Of a stretch of DNA of 32,000 nt, positions 4,222 through 30,067 are shown one piece after another. Below the pieces are notes generated by a model, which saw only the letters and a program-made list of their open reading frames with translations, had not been told where the DNA came from and did not search any database. The position numbers and the translations under genes are program-made. This DNA is from a cyanobacterium endosymbiont of Epithemia turgida isolate EtSB Lake Yunoko (GTDB lineage Bacteria; Cyanobacteriota; Cyanobacteriia; Cyanobacteriales; Microcystaceae): contig NZ_AP012549.1 in NCBI RefSeq assembly GCF_000829235.1, positions 1,950,001 through 1,982,000 of the forward strand, in the 5' to 3' direction. The number at the start of each line of letters is the position of its first letter. Positions within the stretch are counted from its first letter, which is position 1.

Positions 4222-4362
4222 TCCATTTCTCGAACAACAGTTAAATATATATTATTAACCCTTCTGGGTTTATTTGGGGGCGTTTGCTTTGCATAGAGAT
4301 TATCCATCTATTTTCGCTGTGCATTTCTCTATAGAGATCACCGAGTCTTGTTTATTTAAAGT

Positions 4363-4406
4363 CCCATCATTCCCAGTAACTGATCGCAGTTACTGGGAAT
4401 GATGGG
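4363..4406. repeat. Perfect 20-bp stem / 4-nt loop inverted repeat in the region upstream of the transglycosylase gene
   Basis: cccatcattcccagtaactg-atcg-cagttactgggaatgatggg, read directly. The centre (tgatcgca) resembles a degenerate HIP1 core. Confidence 0.6.
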
Positions 4407-5900
4407 TAGAGAACTTATGCAAGTTCGTTTTTAACAGGCTCTTCATATGTATTCTTGATAAAAGTTTTGCAATATTTTTTCTGGTTTTTAGAAGTCAATT
4501 TGGTGATTATGCCGCGTATTTTTATGAACCTGTTAAGATAAAAAATCCCTACTTTTAGTGCAATTCTATTGAAGACTAACCCTTACAGTTTGCTCATACT
4601 TAAATTTAGTCCATACTTTCATTTATGATATTTATAATCAATTCTAGGATAATAAAGTGAGTTAAGTAAGAAGTGTTCGCTTTATATATTTCAATAGCTA
4701 ATATTTAATATTATTCGTTAATACATAACTCCTATCATGGATAAAATTTAAGTAAAAATCCAGTAAAGATTTATAACTTAGAAAATATTAGTTATACAAA
4801 ATTAAAAACCATAGTTATTATTCTCATTATATAAGTTAATCAATGAAGAATTCAACCACATAAAATTAACTTTACTCAGTAGATTAAAATAAAAATTTTA
4901 GGCAGATAAGTTTAACAAAAAAGTGAATGAAATAGTCCAATATACTTTAATTTCTTAAATATAAAATATAAAATATAGTTTTATGTTGATCATCCATCAA
5001 CTATTTCACCAATGGGTTTCACTGGTTTTTATTTCATACTCTGTTGATGAAAAGTAGTTAGTTTAAGTCCTTGTTGATAAAGGGGTTTATATATTTATTA
5101 AGCAAGATATCAAGCAAATTATTTACTGTAATGATATCTTGTGTTAACTCAAAAATAACTTTACAGTTATCTGTGTTAACTGTAGTTAACTTCACAGTTA
5201 ATAACCTTGGTCGTTTATGATTAAGTGTAGTCTATTTTAGTTCTTGATGTTACCCTAAATTGGTTTATTCTTGTTAAATTATTTTTTCAAAACTAGGTAT
5301 ACTCTATTGAGATTCTAATGAAAGACTCCTATCGGAACAGAATGAATGAAACTAATCCCTGTAATTCCTCTTTTGTGAATCAGTAAAAAACAACAAAGTA
5401 GTATCATTAAAAGGTTCAATACGCTGACCCATAAAAAGCGACTATAATGATCATAACTTTTCCTATTCTCATATAATAACTACATCATTTTTCTTTTAAA
5501 AATACTGTCAATTGAGTAACAGAATGATAATGCTGTTTTTATTTTTAATAAAAATGACTTAGACTATAAAACATCTCAGCGAGATCAAGACGATATTTTA
5601 TATTGATAGCACCAAACCTCAATAAATACTGCTGATAGCATAGCATGGAGTGGCTGCTTCCTTTTTTCTTAAATTATTGTCGAACTCACATTTTTTCAAC
5701 GAGAATTTCAGTCTTGATTGTTAACGGTTACCATTTTAGACAATCGTCAACCTCGTCACATTTTAACTTTAATATTGAGAATAAAAATAGTGTGTTTCAA
5801 TTTTATCAAATTCACATCCCTAGTGGGGACACTTTTCTGTTTGGGCGTTTTCTTGTACCAGATTCTATACTTAAAATCCTAAAATATTATATTTTTTACT

Positions 5901-7607: not shown

Positions 7608-8147
7608 CTAAGAGGAAGTTATCATGGAAGATGAGGAAGTTCCTTTATCAGAAGTGTTATGATTGTCCTCTTGCCAATGGGTTTCTGAGTGGGTTTTTTG
7701 TTCCTGAAATTGTTCTAGAGTGGCCACAAAATCTTTAATGCCTTGAAAGCGACCATAAACAGATGCAAAACGAATATATGCTACTTCATTTTCTTGACGA
7801 AGGTAATCTAACACTAATTGGCCAACTTCTTGGCTAGTTACTTCCCGTCGAGGATGCTGCTGCAATTGAGCCTCGATTTCATCAACAATCGATTCTAGTC
7901 TCTGATGGGAGATTCCTGTTTTCTCACAAGCCCGGATAATCGCTCGCAACAATTTAGAACGATCAAAGGATTCTTTTTTCCCGTCGTGTTTGACAACAAT
8001 GATGGGAAAAAACTCTACTCTTTCATAAGTTGTAAAACGATGTTTGCAACCTAAACACTCACGACGACGACGAATACTTTGTCCCCCTTCAGAGGAGCGA
8101 GACTCTAAAACACGACTATTGATGTGTTGACAGTATGGACATTGCAT
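7608..8147 (-). CDS. nrdR: Transcriptional repressor NrdR (zinc ribbon + ATP-cone)
   Basis: 179 aa. The canonical N-terminus is [45 protein letters not shown], followed by an ATP-cone region. Confidence 0.95.
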
Positions 8148-8335
8148 GGAACTGTCCGTAATAACGGATATTGAATTAACAATAAGCTAGCCAACAGTAC
8201 AGTAAAAAATGAACAATCTAAGCAGAACTAGCAACTAGCTATGCTGATATATCTATTCTCTCTAGAAGGGAAAAAACATAGGAGATTGGGGGTATATTAA
8301 CAGCAGTTGATTCTAGTAGAATAGATAGTCGAAAT

Positions 8336-8429
8336 TTATGTTTCAATACGAGGGATTGACCGAAAGGCGATATCGAAAAACAATACAACTAAAGCCATAC
8401 CAAGAAACATAATAAGCAGCGCTTTCCAT
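8336..8429 (-). pseudogene. psbT: psbT (photosystem II reaction centre protein T) remnant with a 1-nt frameshift
   Basis: The minus strand reads ATG GAA AGC GCT GCT TAT = MESAAY. After a +1 shift it reads IMFLGMALVVLFFDIAFRSIPRIET*. From memory, the PsbT consensus is MESVAYIL..L..GVLFFAIAFREPPRIE. The length is 94 nt (3n+1). It lies 111 nt downstream of the psbB remnant, which is the usual psbB-psbT arrangement. Confidence 0.8.
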
Positions 8430-8540
8430 TTGATTGATTTCCTAAAATTGCTTGCGTTCCCAGTGTATCAAAAAAGTTGATAATTTTTTAATGTTTAGCG
8501 ATTATAGGGATAATTAAACTTGACTTTTTAAGATAAAATA

Positions 8541-9889
8541 TTAAGTACTTTCTTTTGTAGTTCTTATACTGGGGTTACCCGCTTTATAAAATAACCCTTA
8601 TCCTCCTTATTCTACGAAATCAGTATCGATTCCCGCAAAAACAACGTCTCGGAAAATAATCTACGAGAACCATACCAGATGTGACGAAAGAAGGATGGAC
8701 CGACAAAGACTGTATGGGTAAAGGCAAATCAACCCGATGGTTAAAAAAAATATCGGAACTGAGAGCTTTGCTGACAAGTTATGTCACTTAAGTGAAGTTG
8801 ATGAAGCTCTCTAATGCACCACTCTAGAAAGTAGTTATTTAGTCAGTTGTCGAATATTTAGCTTCGATTGATTCTACACAGCGGAAGGGAATGTCAGCAC
8901 AGACAATTCCTTCCGCTGTGTAAGAACAATTGGAAAGATTCCAAAGAAGTTAGATATCCGACAAACGGTTAATTCACGACCTTCTTTGTCGGTGAATGCG
9001 GGGTGTCCGAGCCAAGCTTGAGCAATTTCATCTCCACTATCCATAGCCCCATCATCAAATAAACTTTTTTTAGCCAAATTGTTCCTAATTTAATTATCAA
9101 ACACTATTTTTTGGATATTTTTGATTTAGCTTTTTTTAGGCTATCTCCAATCGCTAGGTTGAATTCGACACTAAGATAAATTTCCTATTGAGAAACAACG
9201 CTTATCTCATTGATGACGGGTAAGTCCAAAAAATTCAATTTTGGATAGTTCCCTTTATGATGAAGATAGCGAAGAAAATAGCGGTAATACTTCTAGAAAG
9301 GACTACTTAAGTTCTTCTTGGTTGAAAACAGTTAAAGTTCGCAAGACCTCATTCCAGGACGATACGTTGGGCATGGCCAGTCAATCTATAAGGGTAGAAT
9401 ATCTACATCCCAAGACCTTAGGGTCTAGTTAAGTACAATGCTACGAAACCAAAGTAAAGTAACCCAGACAAGAACAAGTGAACACTAAACATCTTGAGTA
9501 AGTTTAAGGCAGTGAATTTGCCAATATATTAGATATTAATAAATAATTCAGGTCCTAGAAAACCCAGTGCCAAATAGCAGCTAGACTCGGTAAAGCAGAT
9601 AATCAAAATGTGCACTCACTCCTCCGAAATACCAGAAACCAGAATCTACACTAGGTTCTCCCGTGACATTCCAGTCACCCCAGGAGCCAGCAACGTCTTA
9701 AGGGTCCATGAAGAGAACAACAATCATCTCCTGTCGTCATAGTTAAGTTAAAAACAACATCACCCAGCTCATAAAGAGATATAGAATATGCTTAACCTGT
9801 TACAAGAGCGGTGTTCATAGGGTGAATGGAGACGAGTAGGACTAAACATTCAGAACGACTGTGTGAATTCGATACGAAGATAGTCCCAT
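8541..9889 (-). pseudogene. psbB: psbB (photosystem II CP47 chlorophyll apoprotein) pseudogene with multiple in-frame stops, frameshifts and about 175 nt of net deletion
   Basis: Hand translation of the minus strand gives these fragments, with the PsbB match (recalled) in brackets:
- MGLSSYRIHTVVLNV* [MGLPWYRVHTVVLNDPGRL]
- LLVSIHPMNTALVTG* [LISVHLMHTALVAGW]
- FMDP*DVAGSWGDWNVTGEPSVDSGFWYFGGVSAHF [FMARLGVTQSWGGWSITGE..DPGFWSFEGVALAH]
- [38 protein letters not shown] [[37 protein letters not shown]]
- PSG*FAFTHTVFVGPSFFRHIWYGSRRLF, then RDVVFAGIDTD [PRGWFTFGH...[24 protein letters not shown]]. Confidence 0.92.
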
Positions 9890-10446
9890 TGACTACGCTC
9901 CTCCTATTAAGGATATATCGGCTTCAATGCTTTTTTGTATTAGTTGTCTTGGGTTATTTAATTATTATCAAATCCGTGATCGTTCTTCAAGTAAATGTCT
10001 CCGCTCAAGATTAGGCTAACTTGTATTATTTTGAGAAAGTAAAAATTACCTAAAGAAGGACAATTAAATCATTGTTTAGACTCGATTGTAAATCTAAGAA
10101 GGCTACGAGTTATCTGGAAATTAAGTCTAATGTATCTATTTCAAGGTATCACGCTTCAATTACAAGATATCCATTCTCTTTTGAGCTGATGACTCTATTT
10201 CTTGACAATTATTCTCTCAGATGGAGTATGATTAGATTTTCTATCGTCCTGTACCGACAACAGTAAGTTGGCAGTAGGATAAAAATTTTCTAACAAAAAA
10301 CAACACGACAGCATTGCCTTGTCCACCACTACTTTAGTTTGTAATAGTAATATTGTCACTTTATTTTTCAATAAACTTCAATTAAATTTAAAACATCGAC
10401 ATTATAGTCAAAAGTCTCAAGAGTTGATAGAATTTTTGAAAATTTT

Positions 10447-10487
10447 ATTTTAGTCTTTTGGTTGGCAATGCCAACCAAAAGACTAAA
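10447..10487 (-). terminator. 19-bp perfect stem-loop just downstream of the FAD-oxidoreductase stop. It may be a terminator or an mRNA 3' stabiliser.
   Basis: tttt-agtcttttggttggc-aat-gccaaccaaaagact-aaaa, read directly, starting 8 nt after the stop. There is no canonical trailing U-tract, so its function is uncertain. Confidence 0.4.
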
Positions 10488-10494
10488 AAGCTAA

Positions 10495-12588
10495 TTATCT
10501 ATTCTGATGAGCATCAGATAACAAAGTTTGAGGAAAAGTAGTAGGATTTCCTTTCATTTCAAGTATTTGGCGCAATTCCTGTAACAAAGGTTCATGATTA
10601 GGTAAATTGTCTACAAACTCATAAGGTAAAGTGTTGCGTTCTAAAGCCAAATTGGCTAAGTTTCCAGCAGCTGCTCCTACAGACCATTCAAACCCATGTA
10701 CCCGATAAGCTGCTGCCGCAATATGGCTCGTAGCAATACTTTTTCCAGCCACAATCAAATTATCTATTTTTTGGGGAATCATTGCTCGTAGGGGAATTTG
10801 AGCAGGATGAGATCCTCCGTGAGCAATACGTACGTCTTGACGTTCGCGGTTACTAGGTCTTTCGGGGGGAGAAAACGCCATACAAGGATGAAAATCAATC
10901 ATATAGTTGACAATTCCTACTGAATCGTCATAAACTGTGGCATGAGTGCGCTGAGTGAGTAAATAAGAAGGAATAGTACTAATATTTGCTATTTTTGATT
11001 CTAGCTTGGCAATTGTATCCCGAACATTTTTATACATGGGACGAGGTAAAGTAGTTCGATAAAAATCTTGCCAATAATCTTTTGTAGAAATATCAATTTC
11101 GTTAATGCTAAACCCCTCTTTGTGATCAACAGAGGGTCGCCCAATAATACGCCTTCCTTCCCGGATATAAGGGTATTTAGACAACCCATGGACAGTCCCC
11201 ATAGGTGAATCTAACCCCTTTAAAAATCGATGGTTAGGATGTGGCTTTTTGACTCCATATCCGAGGCGTGAGTCAGTAGTTCCTGCTACCAACCAGTAGT
11301 AAAAACCTTTGGCTAATTCTTCCCCTTTTCTAAGGGTTTCTTGACGTAACCCCCCTTTCCATTCCCCGGGTTGTAGTTGCCCACTGTCTTGTAATTGATT
11401 ATGAGTATAAACTAAGTTATCATAACGAGTCCCAGGGCGATAATCATTACCCCATAACCAATTTTGCATAGATATATCTCCTGGAGTGGGACGGTTAACA
11501 GTCATCTGTCCAGCGCGAATGGGGTTTCCTTTTTCGGGACTCCAAATGCGTCGATAAGTGAAGATTAAATCGAAGTAAGCTAGTTTTCGATTAGAATCGT
11601 AACCGTAATAGGGAGCATACTGCTCATAAAAGTTTGGTTTATATTGAGGTTGGGGTTCCTTAGTATGTTCCATAGCAAAGGTATAGGTAAACCCTTGTGT
11701 GCAATAGGGATCACCTTTCTCGTTAGGGGCTGAAGGGTTAAGATGGGAACGAGGATCTAACCCAACCCTATAGGGAACGTCTGCTAAGGCAACAATTTCT
11801 CCTGTTTCTGTGGCTTCGATGACAAACCAATTAGCTTTTTGGGATGCATTCTGAGATTTAGGAATGAAGCGAACAATCTTTTTAGTTAACCGTTGGGAAT
11901 TTTGATAGCTATAAGCATCATCTATTATAGCGGATAGGGGTTCATGGTTGAGGGGAGGAGTTCCGAGCGCATTTTTGTGTTGAATAGCGATCACTCGTTG
12001 AATTTGTTTTCCATCTTTACTCAATTCTAAGTCTTTAACAACTGTTGCCGGGAGCCATCTGAGGTGTCCTCTTCCTAGGCGTTCAGCTTCTTTTAACTGT
12101 CGGTAAATTATGTTATGTCCATCCTTGGGGAGAAAACAGCTTTCACTTACCCAACAGTCTCCAGGGTTGAGGGTTCCATAACCACTAGTAATCGCGTTTC
12201 GTAGCTGTTGATATCCCTTGGGAAAAAGCTGCAATGATCGCTGTTTTTTGCCTTCATCGAGGGCAGAGTTCCCCTGAGATGATATTTGTCCTCCTACCCA
12301 GTCGGAAATATCTGTCAAACAAACTGTCCGTCCTCCTAATAAGGATTCATAGGCGGTAGCTGCCCCGGCGAGTCCTCCTCCAACAATCAGTAAATCACAG
12401 CTTATGGTTTCATCGGGGTCACGAGGTGATGCGGCGATCGCTGGTACAGTTGATAAAACTGATTGTCCACAGAGAACACTTAAGGATAAAGACACTATAA
12501 TACCCTGTAGTCCTTTATTTTTGCTGTCTTTTTTTTGGTGAAAACATCTTGACCTTAGTGATTGCGTTCGGTTACTTTTCCCCATCAT
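10495..12588 (-). CDS. FAD-dependent oxidoreductase of unknown specificity, with an N-terminal signal or anchor-like segment
   Basis: 697-aa ORF. Dinucleotide-binding motif DLLIVGGGLAGAATAYESLLGGRTVCL. Hydrophobic leader IIVSLSLSVLCGQSVLSTVPAIAASP. A C-terminal GKSIATSHIAAAAYRVHGFEWSVGAAAG segment is typical of the flavoprotein C-terminal FAD contact. Confidence 0.8.
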   Translation of the reverse strand: MMGKSNRTQSLRSRCFHQKKDSKNKGLQGIIVSLSLSVLCGQSVLSTVPAIAASPRDPDETISCDLLIVGGGLAGAATAYESLLGGRTVCLTDISDWVGGQISSQGNSALDEGKKQRSLQLFPKGYQQLRNAITSGYGTLNPGDCWVSESCFLPKDGHNIIYRQLKEAERLGRGHLRWLPATVVKDLELSKDGKQIQRVIAIQHKNALGTPPLNHEPLSAIIDDAYSYQNSQRLTKKIVRFIPKSQNASQKANWFVIEATETGEIVALADVPYRVGLDPRSHLNPSAPNEKGDPYCTQGFTYTFAMEHTKEPQPQYKPNFYEQYAPYYGYDSNRKLAYFDLIFTYRRIWSPEKGNPIRAGQMTVNRPTPGDISMQNWLWGNDYRPGTRYDNLVYTHNQLQDSGQLQPGEWKGGLRQETLRKGEELAKGFYYWLVAGTTDSRLGYGVKKPHPNHRFLKGLDSPMGTVHGLSKYPYIREGRRIIGRPSVDHKEGFSINEIDISTKDYWQDFYRTTLPRPMYKNVRDTIAKLESKIANISTIPSYLLTQRTHATVYDDSVGIVNYMIDFHPCMAFSPPERPSNRERQDVRIAHGGSHPAQIPLRAMIPQKIDNLIVAGKSIATSHIAAAAYRVHGFEWSVGAAAGNLANLALERNTLPYEFVDNLPNHEPLLQELRQILEMKGNPTTFPQTLLSDAHQNR

Positions 12589-13770
12589 TAGATGCTGCTA
12601 CTTATTTAAGGAGTTTGAAAAGGAGTGAAATAACAGTAATTTCTATGCATTACTGTCCCTTGAGTCTAGAAAAAGTAACAGAAAATCTCGAGATCTTTAA
12701 TATTTTTTCTAGATTTTGGTTAAATCTAAGATGGATTAATATATGTATTAAAAAATTTGTATACTAACTTCAGTTTCCATATTAATTTTATTGACTTTTA
12801 TTCTTTTTTAAGTTAATGATTAAACTCCTTGTTAGGATAAAAGCTTATTGCTTTAAGTGCTGTGAGATTATGATTCTCAAGTTTATAGAAAAAAAACGAA
12901 CTATCTTAAAGGTAATTAGGATTATTTGAATCAAAGTCTAGGGTCAAAATCCATTGTTTTATTATAATTATGTCCCTTTTAGACTTAGTATTATTAAATG
13001 GTAGTTAAAAACTATGTAAAGAACTTATCATAAATTTATTCTATAGGCACAAGGACTTAATTTTCACCAAAATTGAGTCCTTAAAATCCTCAGAACCTGG
13101 CAAAACAAAACTTTTAGCTTTTATTCATCATTATTTTGTTACAGCTAGGCTAGAAGGGACAGAATTATTAAAATATCTTTGTAAAGGATTAATTTTAAAA
13201 CAATTTCTTGAAAACCTAAGCTTAAACAACAATATTGTTAAGTATGTAACAAACGAAATCGAGTTCAATCTATCGTTTTGCTTAATTAAACTTATTTATT
13301 TGTCTAATGACTACTGGTTTCTTTTATAATAAAAAGATGGGGATAGAGAATTAAATAAAAATATTCTTGAATCTTTGGCTAAATTTAAATAATATACAAT
13401 TATATTTGTGTCTGAGTTAGTATTATCTTTCAAGGAAAGATAAAGTACACATTACCAATTTTGTTTCTATATAAGTAGATACTGATAGCAGTTTAAGCTA
13501 ACTTTCGGTAATTTTTTTTGGTAAAAATAGCTATACTATTCTCAGGTTTTTTAAGATCTGATAAATATCTTATTGAATCACTTTATAAAAATTTTTAAAA
13601 TCAATCTTTTTATATTTGTAAGTCTATCGATTAAATCCATCCTTCATTAATTATTCACTTGTGTCTCTGATGTTACTTGTCTTTCCCTAACTTCATCAAT
13701 AGAAAGGATAACTTTAGATTTCAATAAGATCTTGAATAGTGGTCGGTCGTCAATTACTGTTATCATTACT

Positions 13771-13941
13771 TCAGTACCTGAAAGTCCCCAAAATATTATT
13801 ATTGTGGTCGTATATAGTCACCATCAGTGGTAATAAATTCTCAAGAGAAAACACGGCATTAATATCTGAGCGGTCCGTCCTCCCTTTGCCTACAGAAGAT
13901 AATAATTCTCTGTCATAATTATGTTCAACAATAACTGTCAT
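13771..13941 (-). CDS. Short ORF (56 aa) coupled to txlA by an ATGA start/stop overlap. It may be the 5' part of a frameshifted gene.
   Basis: The ATG at 13941-13939 overlaps the txlA TGA (13940-13938). Product: MTVIVEHNYDRELLSSVGKGRTDRSDINAVFSLENLLPLMVTIYDHNNNILGTFRY*. A second open stretch in another frame continues to about 13650 (GLSGTEVMITVIDDRPLFKILLKSKVILSIDEVRERQ...). No family recognised. Confidence 0.3.
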   Translation of the reverse strand: MTVIVEHNYDRELLSSVGKGRTDRSDINAVFSLENLLPLMVTIYDHNNNILGTFRY

Positions 13942-17385: not shown

Positions 17386-17554
17386 CATAAAACTTCTCAT
17401 TAAACGACTTTCTTAAGTTGCGAAAGACCTATAGCTTCTAAATATTTCCAGAATTCTCTACCCTTTGAATCTCGCCCTCTCTCAACTTTGTCAAAATCCC
17501 AAAAATGCCAATTTAAAGGCAATTCTTGATAATTTTCAGTTGACGGGGAATGTG

Positions 17555-17740
17555 ATGAACGACTTTTTGTATGATATTCTTACAGCTTTAAGAATTTCCT
17601 CATTTTTAATTTTTTCTTGGCTTGTCAGCTACAATTAGCTTTGTATTTCCACCTCGGTCGTTGGTGCAGTGAGTTTAGGTTTCTTTGGTTTAATGGTCTT
17701 GGGATTAAGCTACGGCATCTTTATCGACATTTTGGAATAA
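17555..17740 (+). pseudogene. 61-codon reading frame for a small two-helix membrane peptide, interrupted by one in-frame TAG
   Basis: MNDFLYDILTALRISSFLIFSWLVSYN*LCISTSVVGAVSLGFFGLMVLGLSYGIFIDILE*. The TAG is at 17636-17638 and the terminal TAA at 17738-17740, in the same frame. No family securely recognised. Confidence 0.25.
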
Positions 17741-19212: not shown

Positions 19213-19476
19213 TTAAATGCTTGAAACAAGTTGTAATATTCTAGGGGGATCTTCTAACTCTCCCATGATGCACCTTACTGGTTTAGAACAAAAACGAATA
19301 AAAGTTAGTCTGGCTGTGATATTATGAGCTTCGGCTTCGTCTGGGTGTTTAGAAATATCAATAACTTTAAGAGTGTAGGGATGTTCCAATTCCTTTTCAA
19401 TCAACCTATGAATAATTTATAAGGTTTGTTTTGTCGTGGCGCTATTTCCCACTATAAAAAGACGTGAAATATATCC
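19213..19476 (-). pseudogene. kaiB: kaiB-family (circadian clock protein KaiB-like) pseudogene with an in-frame TAA and no recognisable start codon
   Basis: Minus-strand translation: GYISRLFIVGNSATTKQTL*IIHRLIEKELEHPYTLKVIDISKHPDEAEAHNITARLTFIRFCSKPVRCIMGELEDPPRILQLVSSI*. The recalled KaiB sequence is [76 protein letters not shown]. The in-frame TAA is at 19417-19419. A 10-bp tandem duplication atatccttat/atatccttaa (19471-19490) sits at the expected start. Confidence 0.75.
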
Positions 19477-19486
19477 TTATATATCC

Positions 19487-19967
19487 TTAATAAATTTTTA
19501 TAGAATCTGTTTTATCTGATACAGAAAAACCTAACTGATGCTGGGACTCTTGGGTGCGATAACAGTCCCAAGACACAATAAAATCATGATTGTCCCACAG
19601 TTGAGGAAATTCGTCTTGATAGGTTTCTAAGGTAATTGGGTTACAAGCTTCCTCTTGCCAGGTTACTGTCTGCCAAGTTAGTTAAGTCAGTAATCCCAAA
19701 TACGGAATTCAATAGGGGTAGATAAAGTTCAGCAAGGGTTTTAACCTTGCCGTCTGTCTTAGAAAACCGACAATTGATGGTAGCTGTATAATCAGGAATT
19801 AAAAAATGAGGAAGTTCAGGTAAGTGTAATAATTCCTGCAAAGCTACACATAAATGAGAGTGCCATTTAACTCACTTTGTGCGATCACAACAATAAACTA
19901 GATCTCCTCCGGGGGTGAAAAGAGCAATGCCTTTAAAAAATTAAATTGGAACCACAGAAGTCATCAT
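19487..19967 (-). pseudogene. Degraded ORF of unknown family (about 160 codons) immediately upstream of the kaiB remnant, with two in-frame stops and one frameshift
   Basis: Minus strand: MMTSVVPI*FFKGIALFTPGGDLVYCCDRTK*VKWHSHLCVALQELLHLPELPHFLIPDYTATINCRFSKTDGKVKTLAELYLP... This is followed after a frame change by EACNPITLETYQDEFPQLWDNHDFIVSWDCYRTQESQHQLGFSVSDKTDSIKIY*. The length is 481 nt (3n+1). Confidence 0.5.
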
Positions 19968-20239
19968 AGATTTAGAAGTTTCCGGTTCAAAATTATTAAG
20001 TTTTGATAAAAAAATAAGGATGAAGATATTAGTAGATTATTAACCCTATTTTATACAAATAAATAATTTTTTATCCTCACTTTGTTGAGTAAGTATTGCT
20101 CAACATTTTAACTCGTAACATTATGACTATTTCATTAGGAATGGAGGTATCCTCTAAGGCTATATCTTCAGTGATTCGCCTTTTTTTATAGAAATTCAAC
20201 AAAAACTAATTCCTGGTGAGTATGCCACTAGTCATGTTG

Positions 20240-20502
20240 TTATATCATCCGTTTTTCATTAATTAATTCCGCGAATTTGTCATATTTACCTTGAATAAGG
20301 TAGTCTTTAATGGTTTCCGTATTGAGCAAAATATCATGGTGAACAGCTAGTTTCCTCTCGATTGTTCGACATGATTTTTGGGAAAAATAGCTGCTAAAGA
20401 CTCAGCCATCGCCACCCCTATAGTTTTGTGTTCTTCGGCTGTATATAGAAGAATCAATCCTAGAGTTTTCACTGCAGTGTTGTTATAGATGATTCCCATC
20501 AT
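20240..20502 (-). pseudogene. Degraded short ORF (about 87 codons, one frameshift), family unknown
   Basis: MMGIIYNNTAVKTLGLILLYTAEEHKTIGVAMAESLAAIFPKNHVEQ, then after a frame change ERKLAVHHDILLNTETIKDYLIQGKYDKFAELINEKRMI*. The length is 263 nt (3n+2). Confidence 0.35.
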
Positions 20503-21706
20503 CTCATAATACTAAATCCAGCTGCAAGAACCAACTTAATAATCAATTTAACTCTGTATTTTAGTCTATTTTAAATCTAAATTAGTTGGTGTAAATCTGA
20601 CACAAGTTTTAACCTAGTTGAATAAGATTTATACTTTCATATTTAGTTTATAGTTAATTAGCTTTCTTGGTTTGATAATTCTTATCAAGAAATATCTCCG
20701 CTTCTAAACAATTTCGTTCTAAGCGTAATTTAACGACTTTTATAACTACCATTGCTAATTTATATTCATCCTATTTTATTTTTTGCCATTAGTTCTTAAT
20801 TATGGGAAATAAAAATATGATTTTTATATTGGAAACTATTATAAGCTAGTCAATATTTAAACTATTTTTCTATTGTCAATAAATCGCATCTATTAAACCT
20901 GTTTCTTTTGAATATTCAATTTTTGTTTATTCCCCTTATAAATCAACTAAAAGTGATTGTTTACTGAAGATTAAAGCATAATTCATCTAGACTTTTCAAC
21001 GGATTTATCCTACAGCTTAGTAGAGTATACAATAATTTCATTATAAATTATTGTGCGCACTGTTGAGGAAGCTTATTTTAATAGATGAATGGCAATTTTC
21101 TCCACCCTATTGTTGATAATTCCCATCACACTAGCTCTATCTTTTTTTCTTTGAAAAACTTTTTGCTCTTTACTCAACTAAAATAAGATCCTTTACTGCT
21201 ACAACTTCAAGAATATTCTTAAACGAATAGATGACATTAGTTCATTATAGTCCTTATTGCTAACTTCTTCAACATAATTTTGATTCTGTTTATGGCGGTT
21301 ACTTTTAAACCTGTAACAAGCATTCTACTTACTCAAGTATCTTCTTAGTGTCTTAGAAAGAAATTGACTTGTATTAAGAAATATAAACACTATATAATTT
21401 GTTAACCTTTTCTCCAGGGAACTTTTGAGTGAGTTAATTTTTGATGTGAAAGATCGCTCACTTGGAGTCCAGGTCAACTTATATACTGATTCTGTCTGAA
21501 TTAAAAGATCGAGATAAATTGTATATTTTGAAACTCCAAAATTTTTTCTGCAATAAATCTTAATAACTACCAGATAAAATCATCTAAAAATGTAAATTTT
21601 CTTTTCAAGATACTCATCTTTTCTCCAATTTATCTATACTAAATTTTAAGCATTATATTTCCAATAGTTTTACTAGTTTTACTAATTTGCTCTGGAGGAA
21701 AGTTTT

Positions 21707-29071: not shown

Positions 29072-29112
29072 AACTTAAGCGGGAGTTGATAATAACTCCC
29101 GCTTAAGTTTTA
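29069..29112 (+). terminator. Terminator of the exporter/epimerase operon: 19-bp perfect stem, 6-nt loop, with the 3' arm ending in UUUUA
   Basis: taaaacttaagcgggagtt-gataat-aactcccgcttaagtttta. The stop codon (29069-29071) lies inside the 5' arm. Confidence 0.6.
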
Positions 29113-29242
29113 AAAAAATCTTCATAGCAAATTCCTTGAATTTATTTTAAGAGAGTATTGAAATTAGAGCCTAATTTTTTTCTACTATTTTTTATCATAG
29201 ATTTTGACTCTTCAATAGACTATAATTGGTATTATTTATTTA

Positions 29243-29287
29243 GAATTTACAGTCTCAAAATTAAGATAACTTTGAGACTGTAAATTC
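29243..29287. repeat. Perfect 17-bp stem / 11-nt loop inverted repeat in an AT-rich desert
   Basis: gaatttacagtctcaaa-attaagataac-tttgagactgtaaattc, read directly. Confidence 0.6.
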
Positions 29288-29838
29288 GCACTAAATCTTT
29301 AATAAATTATCTAATTAACTTGTTTATAATCTGATTTTATAGTCTTTTGTGAATATATTTATTAACATAAATAATAGATTGTTTGTAGATAGTAAAATTT
29401 TTGTTGATTGAACATTTTTATAAAAATAATTAACTTACTATATAAGTATTGCTAAAACTATTTTCAGAAGTAAACTAATGTTATTTGTCTTTTATGAAGA
29501 AACTATTTTGTCTAAAAAAATAACTATGTTTTTTCATAGTATTGAGAGTCTTCATTTAAGATTTTATATAAAACTTATTGGTGATCTTTAATTTTTTTTA
29601 TATATTGAATAATTTTCATATATTTTTAATAAAAAGTGTGAGCGTATCAAGAGATATTTATAAGTTATTAAATAGTAATATTTTAGTATTTAGTTTAAAT
29701 TTTAAGTTGTTGATATAGTAAACTAGAAATCCTTATTTATTTAAAATTGCTCATCATTTAATGGAAAAGTTAATACGAAAGTCATCGTTATGGTCTATTG
29801 ACATAAGTCAATAAAAATAAAACGGTTTATATTAATTA

Positions 29839-29884
29839 ATAACCCCAAAAATATTAATAATATTATTAATATTTTTGGGGTTAT
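29839..29884. repeat. Perfect 46-bp spacerless palindrome (23-bp arms) in an AT-rich desert
   Basis: ataaccccaaaaatattaataat|attattaatatttttggggttat. Every position was checked pairwise. Confidence 0.6.
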
Positions 29885-30067
29885 AATATGTTCATATTTC
29901 AAAACTAATAGTAGTCGAGTCGATTTGAGACTTTAATTTTAGCTATAAAATATTAGTATTAATTCTGATTTGATTGGGAATCGGAATTATTTTCGGTCTC
30001 TAATAGGGTCGACGTAAGAAATGAATACCCCTATCATCTATAGTTGAGCCCCAACATTTAGACTCAT

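Follow-up and report, generated by a model that had tools for sequence, protein, structure and literature searches.

Does the cyanobacterial endosymbiont of the diatom Epithemia turgida (EtSB) retain a working psbB, the gene for CP47, and, if the gene is broken, how long has it been so and what has become of its DNA since? We asked this of a 32,000-nt stretch of the EtSB genome (hereafter the window, to which all positions refer), in which a first-pass annotation made from the sequence alone had described psbB as a heavily eroded pseudogene. The 2014 paper of Nakayama et al. on the EtSB genome reportedly had the loss of photosynthesis as its chief finding. The psbB pseudogene is itself already annotated and published: Table S2 of PMC12903740, in which parentheses denote pseudogenes with internal stops or frameshifts, lists it as ETSB-1343, together with psbB pseudogenes in the endosymbionts of Rhopalodia gibberula (RgSB, RGRSB-1668), R. 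gibba (RaSB, JJP05-01480) and E. adnata (EaSB, KPI85-01415), and gives the gene as absent (--) from those of E. pelagica (EpSB) and E. clementina (EcSB) and from UCYN-A. In the same table, psbB of Rippkaea 8802 is Cyan8802-3051, and EtSB has, besides its broken psbB, a broken psbA, a broken psbD (ETSB-0755) and no psbC.

Neither EtSB nor RgSB has functional PSI or PSII genes (PMC5638926), in keeping with the first-pass statement that no oxygenic photosynthesis is to be expected from this locus; the loss of photosynthesis in these endosymbionts is also treated in PMC12377750 and PMC11070190. An intact psbB paralog accompanied by a full PSII gene set, which the same annotation had named as the finding that would overturn it, is contradicted by the published tables and text (PMC5638926, PMC12903740), and it is on these that the lack of a second psbB in the EtSB genome rests. 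ETSB-1343 appears to be the same locus as the relic in the window, but the published table only marks the gene as broken. What is added here is a catalogue of its lesions, an analysis of those shared with relatives, tests of neutrality, and evidence for inactivation before the split of the sampled lineages.

Identity and extent of the psbB relic

The window comes from the genome of a rhopalodiacean diatom endosymbiont. Its NrdR protein, encoded by the intact downstream neighbor of the relic (7608 to 8147, minus strand; Pfam Zn_ribbon_NrdR and ATP-cone), has the same sequence as BAP18093.1 / WP_044106909.1 of the E. turgida endosymbiont, and the nearest loci are those of Rhopalodia and Epithemia endosymbionts. 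The gene order in the window matches ETSB-1341 to ETSB-1358, a run in which the published tags include rpsA (ETSB-1341), a 666-aa FAD oxidoreductase (ETSB-1344), rpsO (ETSB-1349), the chlG pseudogene (ETSB-1357) and an ArsA-family ATPase (ETSB-1358) (PMC12903740 Table S2). Using NrdR as a synteny anchor, we gathered the loci of relatives by scanning the genome collection with this protein, and compared the window with the diazoplast loci of R. gibberula, R. gibba, E. clementina and E. pelagica (uoEpiScrs1). The intact reference was psbB of "Unicellular cyanobacterium SU2" (L005:4028-5560, 510 codons). Crocosphaera loci recovered through NrdR (L008, L011, L017-L020) were unusable as syntenic references, since they have no psbB beside nrdR.

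The psbB pseudogene occupies positions 8541 to 9889 on the minus strand. A global DNA alignment to SU2 psbB puts its original ATG at 9889-9887 and its original TAA at 8543-8541, so that the first-pass coordinates prove exact. Read on the minus strand from 9889, the relic gives MGLSSYRIHTVVLNV and then a stop; past this first stop, CP47 blocks carry on in the other two minus-strand frames, and the C-terminal block FRDVVFAGIDTDFVE lies at 8651-8610 on the same strand. Both peptides had been picked out at first pass as the ends of a collinear series of CP47 blocks, and the alignment bears this out. With tblastn, residues 1-508 of the 510 of SU2 PsbB are covered in all three minus-strand frames (summed E 3e-53), and the joined fragments match the NCBIfam family TIGR03039 (PS_II_CP47) with an E of 1e-53. 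The equivalog cutoff of that family is missed nonetheless (182.7 bits versus 630.8), though the fragments had been joined by hand across frames. Identity to SU2 is 72% at the nucleotide level over the aligned gene and, at the amino acid level, 57% to PsbB over the codons that can still be aligned. An uninterrupted frame of some 505-510 codons is absent, the longest open piece being 67 aa. The gene context is retained, with a psbT relic 112 nt downstream and the order found in SU2 and Rippkaea 8802. From its sequence, then, the relic is to be regarded as homologous to CP47 along its whole length but devoid of CP47 function.

Lesions in psbB

Aligned collinearly with SU2, the relic shows 20 indels and 19 premature stops in the ancestral frame, as befits the heavily eroded pseudogene described at first pass. 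Nine of the 19 stops were formerly TGG codons, and 13 of the indels shift the frame, numbers that give substance to the "several" in-frame stops and frame changes first noted. Twelve deletions remove 202 nt and eight insertions add 18 nt, which leaves 1349 nt versus 1533 nt in SU2; the net loss reported earlier is thus real, but it measures 184 nt and not about 175 nt.

Among the deletions are ones of 108, 36, 20 and 15 nt. The largest has its junction at 9314..9315 and took out SU2 codons 197-232, a hydrophobic, His-rich segment that we take to be a CP47 transmembrane helix with chlorophyll-binding His ligands. With codons 197-232 deleted, the relic would no longer encode the full set of CP47 membrane segments and chlorophyll-binding histidines. 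Most of the 108-nt gap is common to the R. gibba endosymbiont, and RgSB has a larger gap that spans it.

The residual 67-aa ORF

One ORF of at least 60 aa persists on the strand of psbB within the relic, at 8874 to 9077 (minus strand, 67 aa). It corresponds roughly to CP47 residues 320-373, in the large lumenal loop, and matches these residues in solved PSII structures with an E of 5e-17 (phmmer against PDB). The first-pass annotation had called it the only ORF entry of the region; this stands for the gene's own strand, but two opposite-strand ORFs (9241-9432 and 9826-10014) overlap the psbB region as well. A 1-nt insertion breaks the frame in RgSB; in the R. gibba endosymbiont an insertion of 19 nt and a deletion of 40 nt do so. 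Judged from these comparisons, the ORF is an open stretch that would have survived by chance.

The gene call made on the Logan assembly (9071-9274, corresponding to window positions 8874-9077) emits the 67-aa fragment as a PF00421 (PSII) protein, and in the protein collection the fragment forms a single-member cluster of its own, a case of pseudogene debris entering protein databases. A "PSII" protein of this kind, produced by gene callers, can mislead metagenome surveys of photosynthesis genes.

Shared lesions and the timing of inactivation

About half of the psbB lesions of the window are common to both Rhopalodia endosymbionts. The three relics share 1-nt deletions at codon 15, where the first frameshift of the relic lies, and at codon 119, and longer ones at codons 407 (6 nt), 421 (36 nt) and 443 (7 nt). 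They also have insertions in common at codons 102, 131, 280 and 477, and each of them has a stop at codons 69, 118, 275, 397, 416, 419, 450 and 489. At codon 492, too, all three have a stop, written TAA in the window and TAG in RgSB and the R. gibba endosymbiont. The insertion at codon 477 and the stop at codon 489 recur in the remnant of E. pelagica, in whose spacer only the last ~150 nt are homologous to psbB; only those positions were used, and a forced alignment of this spacer to the middle of psbB was discarded as spurious.

The other half, approximately, of the lesions is specific to the window. Here belong deletions of 15 nt at codon 40 and 5 nt at codon 98, single-nucleotide deletions (codons 309, 372 and 394) and further stops (codons 33, 56, 282, 314 and 402). 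The window also has a 20-nt deletion of its own, while RgSB has lost ~290 nt from the middle of the gene and the R. gibba endosymbiont has 18-nt and 40-nt deletions and a 19-nt insertion, each peculiar to its lineage. The relic in the window lies at the same place on the chromosome as the published pseudogenes RGRSB-1668 and JJP05-01480, is 82-85% identical to them in nucleotide sequence, and agrees with them exactly in many of its frameshifts, deletions and stops.

The 2-nt deletion of psbT described below is likewise shared. Since psbB and psbT lesions are shared across diazoplasts, we infer that the ancestor common to the sampled lineages already carried a defective operon. By this evidence the inactivation of psbB and psbT predates the split of the sampled diazoplasts, and about half of the psbB lesions of the window arose after it.

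Neutral decay

The body of psbB is 82-85% identical between diazoplasts, just as the surrounding noncoding spacers are (80-87%). Differences among diazoplasts show no preference for any codon position (p 0.35-0.52), whereas those between diazoplasts and SU2 fall in excess on third positions (p 5e-6 to 2e-4). GC content has fallen to 38.7% from the 49.2% of the intact gene, and the changes specific to the window include 35 from GC to AT versus 14 from AT to GC. A deletion bias is seen in the 202 nt lost versus 18 nt gained. The free-living psbB, with an open 510-codon frame, 49% GC and a third-position-biased divergence, differs from a relic with 19 stops, 13 frameshifts and 39% GC. Given the flat codon positions, the spacer-like identity and the drift toward AT, the psbB relic is best described as evolving neutrally, under a mutation pattern that is both AT biased and deletion biased.

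Beyond the old start codon lies the former psbB 5' region (9890 to 9990, minus strand), with AGGAGGAG, which resembles a Shine-Dalgarno sequence, and, at 9990-9961, a pair of sigma-70-like hexamers. In the 75 nt 5' of the ATG, identity is 84% with SU2 and 89% with the other diazoplasts (~73 sites). We claim no constraint here, 89% versus 83-85% in the gene body being a marginal excess. A scan of positions 8100-10600 found 13 sigma-70-like sites versus 7.8 +/- 2.4 in shuffled sequences, which gives no support either way, and found no terminators.

Uneven removal of the locus

Among free-living relatives, SU2 has the order psbB-psbT-nrdR-rpsA, and the gene numbering of Rippkaea PCC 8802 agrees with it (Cyan8802-3051, -3050, -3048). 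The window keeps this same order, and in all diazoplast loci the relic, or what is left of it, is framed by a FAD-dependent oxidoreductase on one side and nrdR and the ribosomal protein S1 gene on the other. The oxidoreductase, the intact upstream neighbor (10495 to 12588, minus strand; PF12831; ETSB-1344), is 92-95% identical at the amino acid level across the four other diazoplast loci.

Between these two conserved flanks, the DNA has been removed to very different extents. The spacer from the oxidoreductase to nrdR measures 2347 nt in the window, where a nearly full-length psbB relic is followed by the psbT relic, and 2235 nt in RgSB and 2324 nt in the R. gibba endosymbiont, each again with both relics. 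It shrinks to 951 nt in E. pelagica, which keeps the last ~150 nt of psbB and the psbT relic, and to 617 nt in E. clementina, where psbB is gone and the psbT relic is kept. The loss of psbB in the last two was found here independently and agrees with the published table. The outcome in these two diazoplasts and in UCYN-A is like that in EtSB, namely a nitrogen-fixing, Crocosphaera-related endosymbiont without CP47 or PSII (PMC12377750, PMC11070190, PMC12903740), but in E. clementina and E. pelagica the psbB DNA has been removed, whereas the window retains it nearly in full.

Just past the stop of the oxidoreductase, at ~10451-10485, there is a near-perfect 17+17-nt palindrome (TAGTCTTTTGGTTGGCA T TGCCAACCAAAAGACTA), conserved in all diazoplast loci, that of E. 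pelagica included. It is likely a terminator or some other structured element.

The psbT relic and conserved short blocks upstream of nrdR

The psbT pseudogene (8336 to 8429, minus strand) is 94 nt long versus 96 nt for the intact gene, as codons 6-7 have lost 2 nt, a deletion that all five diazoplasts carry in the same form. No psbT orthologue is recorded in these endosymbionts (PMC12903740 Table S2). The 24 codons 3' of the frameshift are open in all five, and this remainder was considered as a conserved small protein and rejected, its dN/dS among diazoplasts being ~1 (range, 0.5-4.7). The conserved REPPRIEK tail of psbT decays differently in each lineage. The openness of the remainder is therefore best read as probable chance.

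Two short blocks nearby are conserved beyond what neutral drift would leave, which suggests that not every base between the oxidoreductase and nrdR is junk. One is a 55-nt block immediately upstream of psbT (8430 to 8484, minus strand), retained in all five diazoplasts and 82-95% identical in 9 of the 10 diazoplast pairs, against a neutral baseline of 66-85%. The independent psbB deletions of E. clementina and E. pelagica leave it untouched, each of them ending on its upstream side. The other is a strongly conserved 68-nt region directly before nrdR (8148 to 8215, minus strand), 93-100% identical among the five diazoplasts and ~90% identical to SU2, with 62 of 68 columns invariant. This second block presumably acts as the promoter or leader of nrdR or as a regulatory site; a small hairpin (CCGT-TATT-ACGG) occurs within it. 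The 55-nt block, possibly an old psbT-proximal promoter or leader, might have been co-opted to drive or regulate nrdR, an idea that we hold to be rather improbable. If true, such a co-option would explain both the above-neutral conservation of the block and the fact that the two deletions stop short of it.

Other relics in the window

Further traces of decayed genes are scattered over the 32 kb. A nearly full-length chlG lies in four frame pieces at 24973-23974 (minus strand) and reaches 407 bits with TIGR02056, versus a cutoff of 436; chlG is the published pseudogene ETSB-1357, with stops and frameshifts, in EtSB and is intact in RgSB, EcSB and EpSB (PMC12903740 Table S2). Directly 3' of rpsO, at 17435-17737 (plus strand), there is what remains, weakly recognizable and interrupted by a stop, of the PSII assembly gene Sll0933/Pam68 (PF11947, E 3.5e-5, 24.1 bits versus a cutoff of 25). 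In Rippkaea 8802 the Sll0933 orthologue (Cyan8802-2334) adjoins rpsO (Cyan8802-2335), so the position of the relic is syntenic; the same source records no Sll0933 orthologue in these endosymbionts, apparently not as a pseudogene either (PMC12903740 Table S2). The sequence evidence suggests that chlG, psbT and Sll0933/Pam68, too, fell victim to the loss of photosynthesis.

A KaiB-like fragment that lacks its N-terminal part is found at 19216-19416 (minus strand), covering positions 14-74 of the 82 of the profile with 38 bits versus an equivalog cutoff of 145. The adjoining ~2.3 kb (19417-21706) contain no ORF longer than 66 aa and no Pfam match, and the two together are probably what is left of a second kai cluster or of other genes that have eroded. 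Three more stretches (1-2022, 4222-5644 and 12589-13937) yielded no long ORF, no Pfam match (fragments included), no Rfam family and no tRNA, and 29072-30067 yielded no long ORF, Rfam family or tRNA. Rfam searches at the gathering threshold and ARAGORN detected no RNA genes in the whole window, so known RNAs do not explain the ORF-free gaps. These stretches of 1-2 kb without ORFs fit with DNA eroded past recognition, in a genome that is reported to have >150 pseudogenes.

Origin of the relic

We consider the locus, with a probability of about 97%, to be the orthologous remnant of a psbB-psbT operon in the nonphotosynthetic diazoplast of E. turgida, disabled in an ancestor and drifting neutrally since; we found nothing of substance that speaks against this. 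A cyanobacterium related to Crocosphaera and Rippkaea became an obligate, nonphotosynthetic, nitrogen-fixing endosymbiont of a photosynthetic diatom. With fixed carbon supplied by the host, and with an oxygen-evolving PSII now a burden on nitrogenase, psbB and psbT would have been released from selection. Both genes were put out of action in the ancestor that the sampled diazoplasts share. Neutral drift under AT-biased and deletion-biased mutation followed, the relic being not yet deleted in E. turgida, R. gibberula and R. gibba, whereas in E. clementina and E. pelagica independent large deletions took all or nearly all of psbB. The relic is presumably no longer expressed.

There is a negligible chance that the gene is intact in the organism, its stops and frameshifts being artifacts of sequencing or assembly or else overcome by recoding. 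We found no support for this, even if a few of the single-base indels, taken in isolation, could resemble homopolymer errors: such errors do not account for 19 stops and 13 indels that shift the frame, for losses of 108, 36, 20 and 15 nt, or for a neutral substitution pattern. The window is, moreover, 100% identical over 16,127 nt to the Logan assembly of SRR29904087, a run that is possibly not independent. Sequencing error is excluded because lesions recur across species, about half of them at the same positions in separately sequenced genomes. The same recurrence makes it very unlikely that psbB was inactivated recently in the E. turgida lineage alone and lost independently by its relatives. 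That about half of the lesions are specific to the window would be expected from such a recent loss, but the frameshift at codon 15, several indels with the same boundaries and at least eight identical stops are common to RgSB and the R. gibba endosymbiont, two C-terminal lesions are common to E. pelagica, and the psbT frameshift is common to all five diazoplasts.

A different question is whether part of the relic has been kept for some function. The 67-aa ORF or the psbT remainder might serve as a small protein, or the psbT-proximal block might supply nrdR with a promoter or leader. The open 24-codon remainder in five of five diazoplasts, the conservation of the 55-nt block above the neutral level in nine of the ten pairs and the two deletions that end upstream of it all speak for such a role. 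We nevertheless regard it as unlikely, as neither RgSB nor the R. gibba endosymbiont has preserved the frame of the 67-aa ORF, the psbT remainder has a dN/dS of ~1 with its REPPRIEK tail decaying lineage by lineage, and the 13 promoter-like matches, set against 7.8 +/- 2.4 in shuffles, count as no excess. Even if a part were kept, this would not make psbB itself functional, and an ancestrally disabled, neutrally drifting operon remnant remains the reading that we prefer.

What the relic tells about diazoplast genomes

The finding leaves current knowledge of EtSB unchanged, in that its loss of photosynthesis is known and the pseudogene has a published locus tag. Its value lies in the detail. 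The psbB relic is usable as a yardstick of neutral rate and mutation spectrum for diazoplast genomes. It also allows one dead gene to be traced through five lineages, at one extreme still almost full length and at the other deleted completely, which makes the locus a clean illustration of the decay of a dispensable gene in a young, organelle-like endosymbiont.
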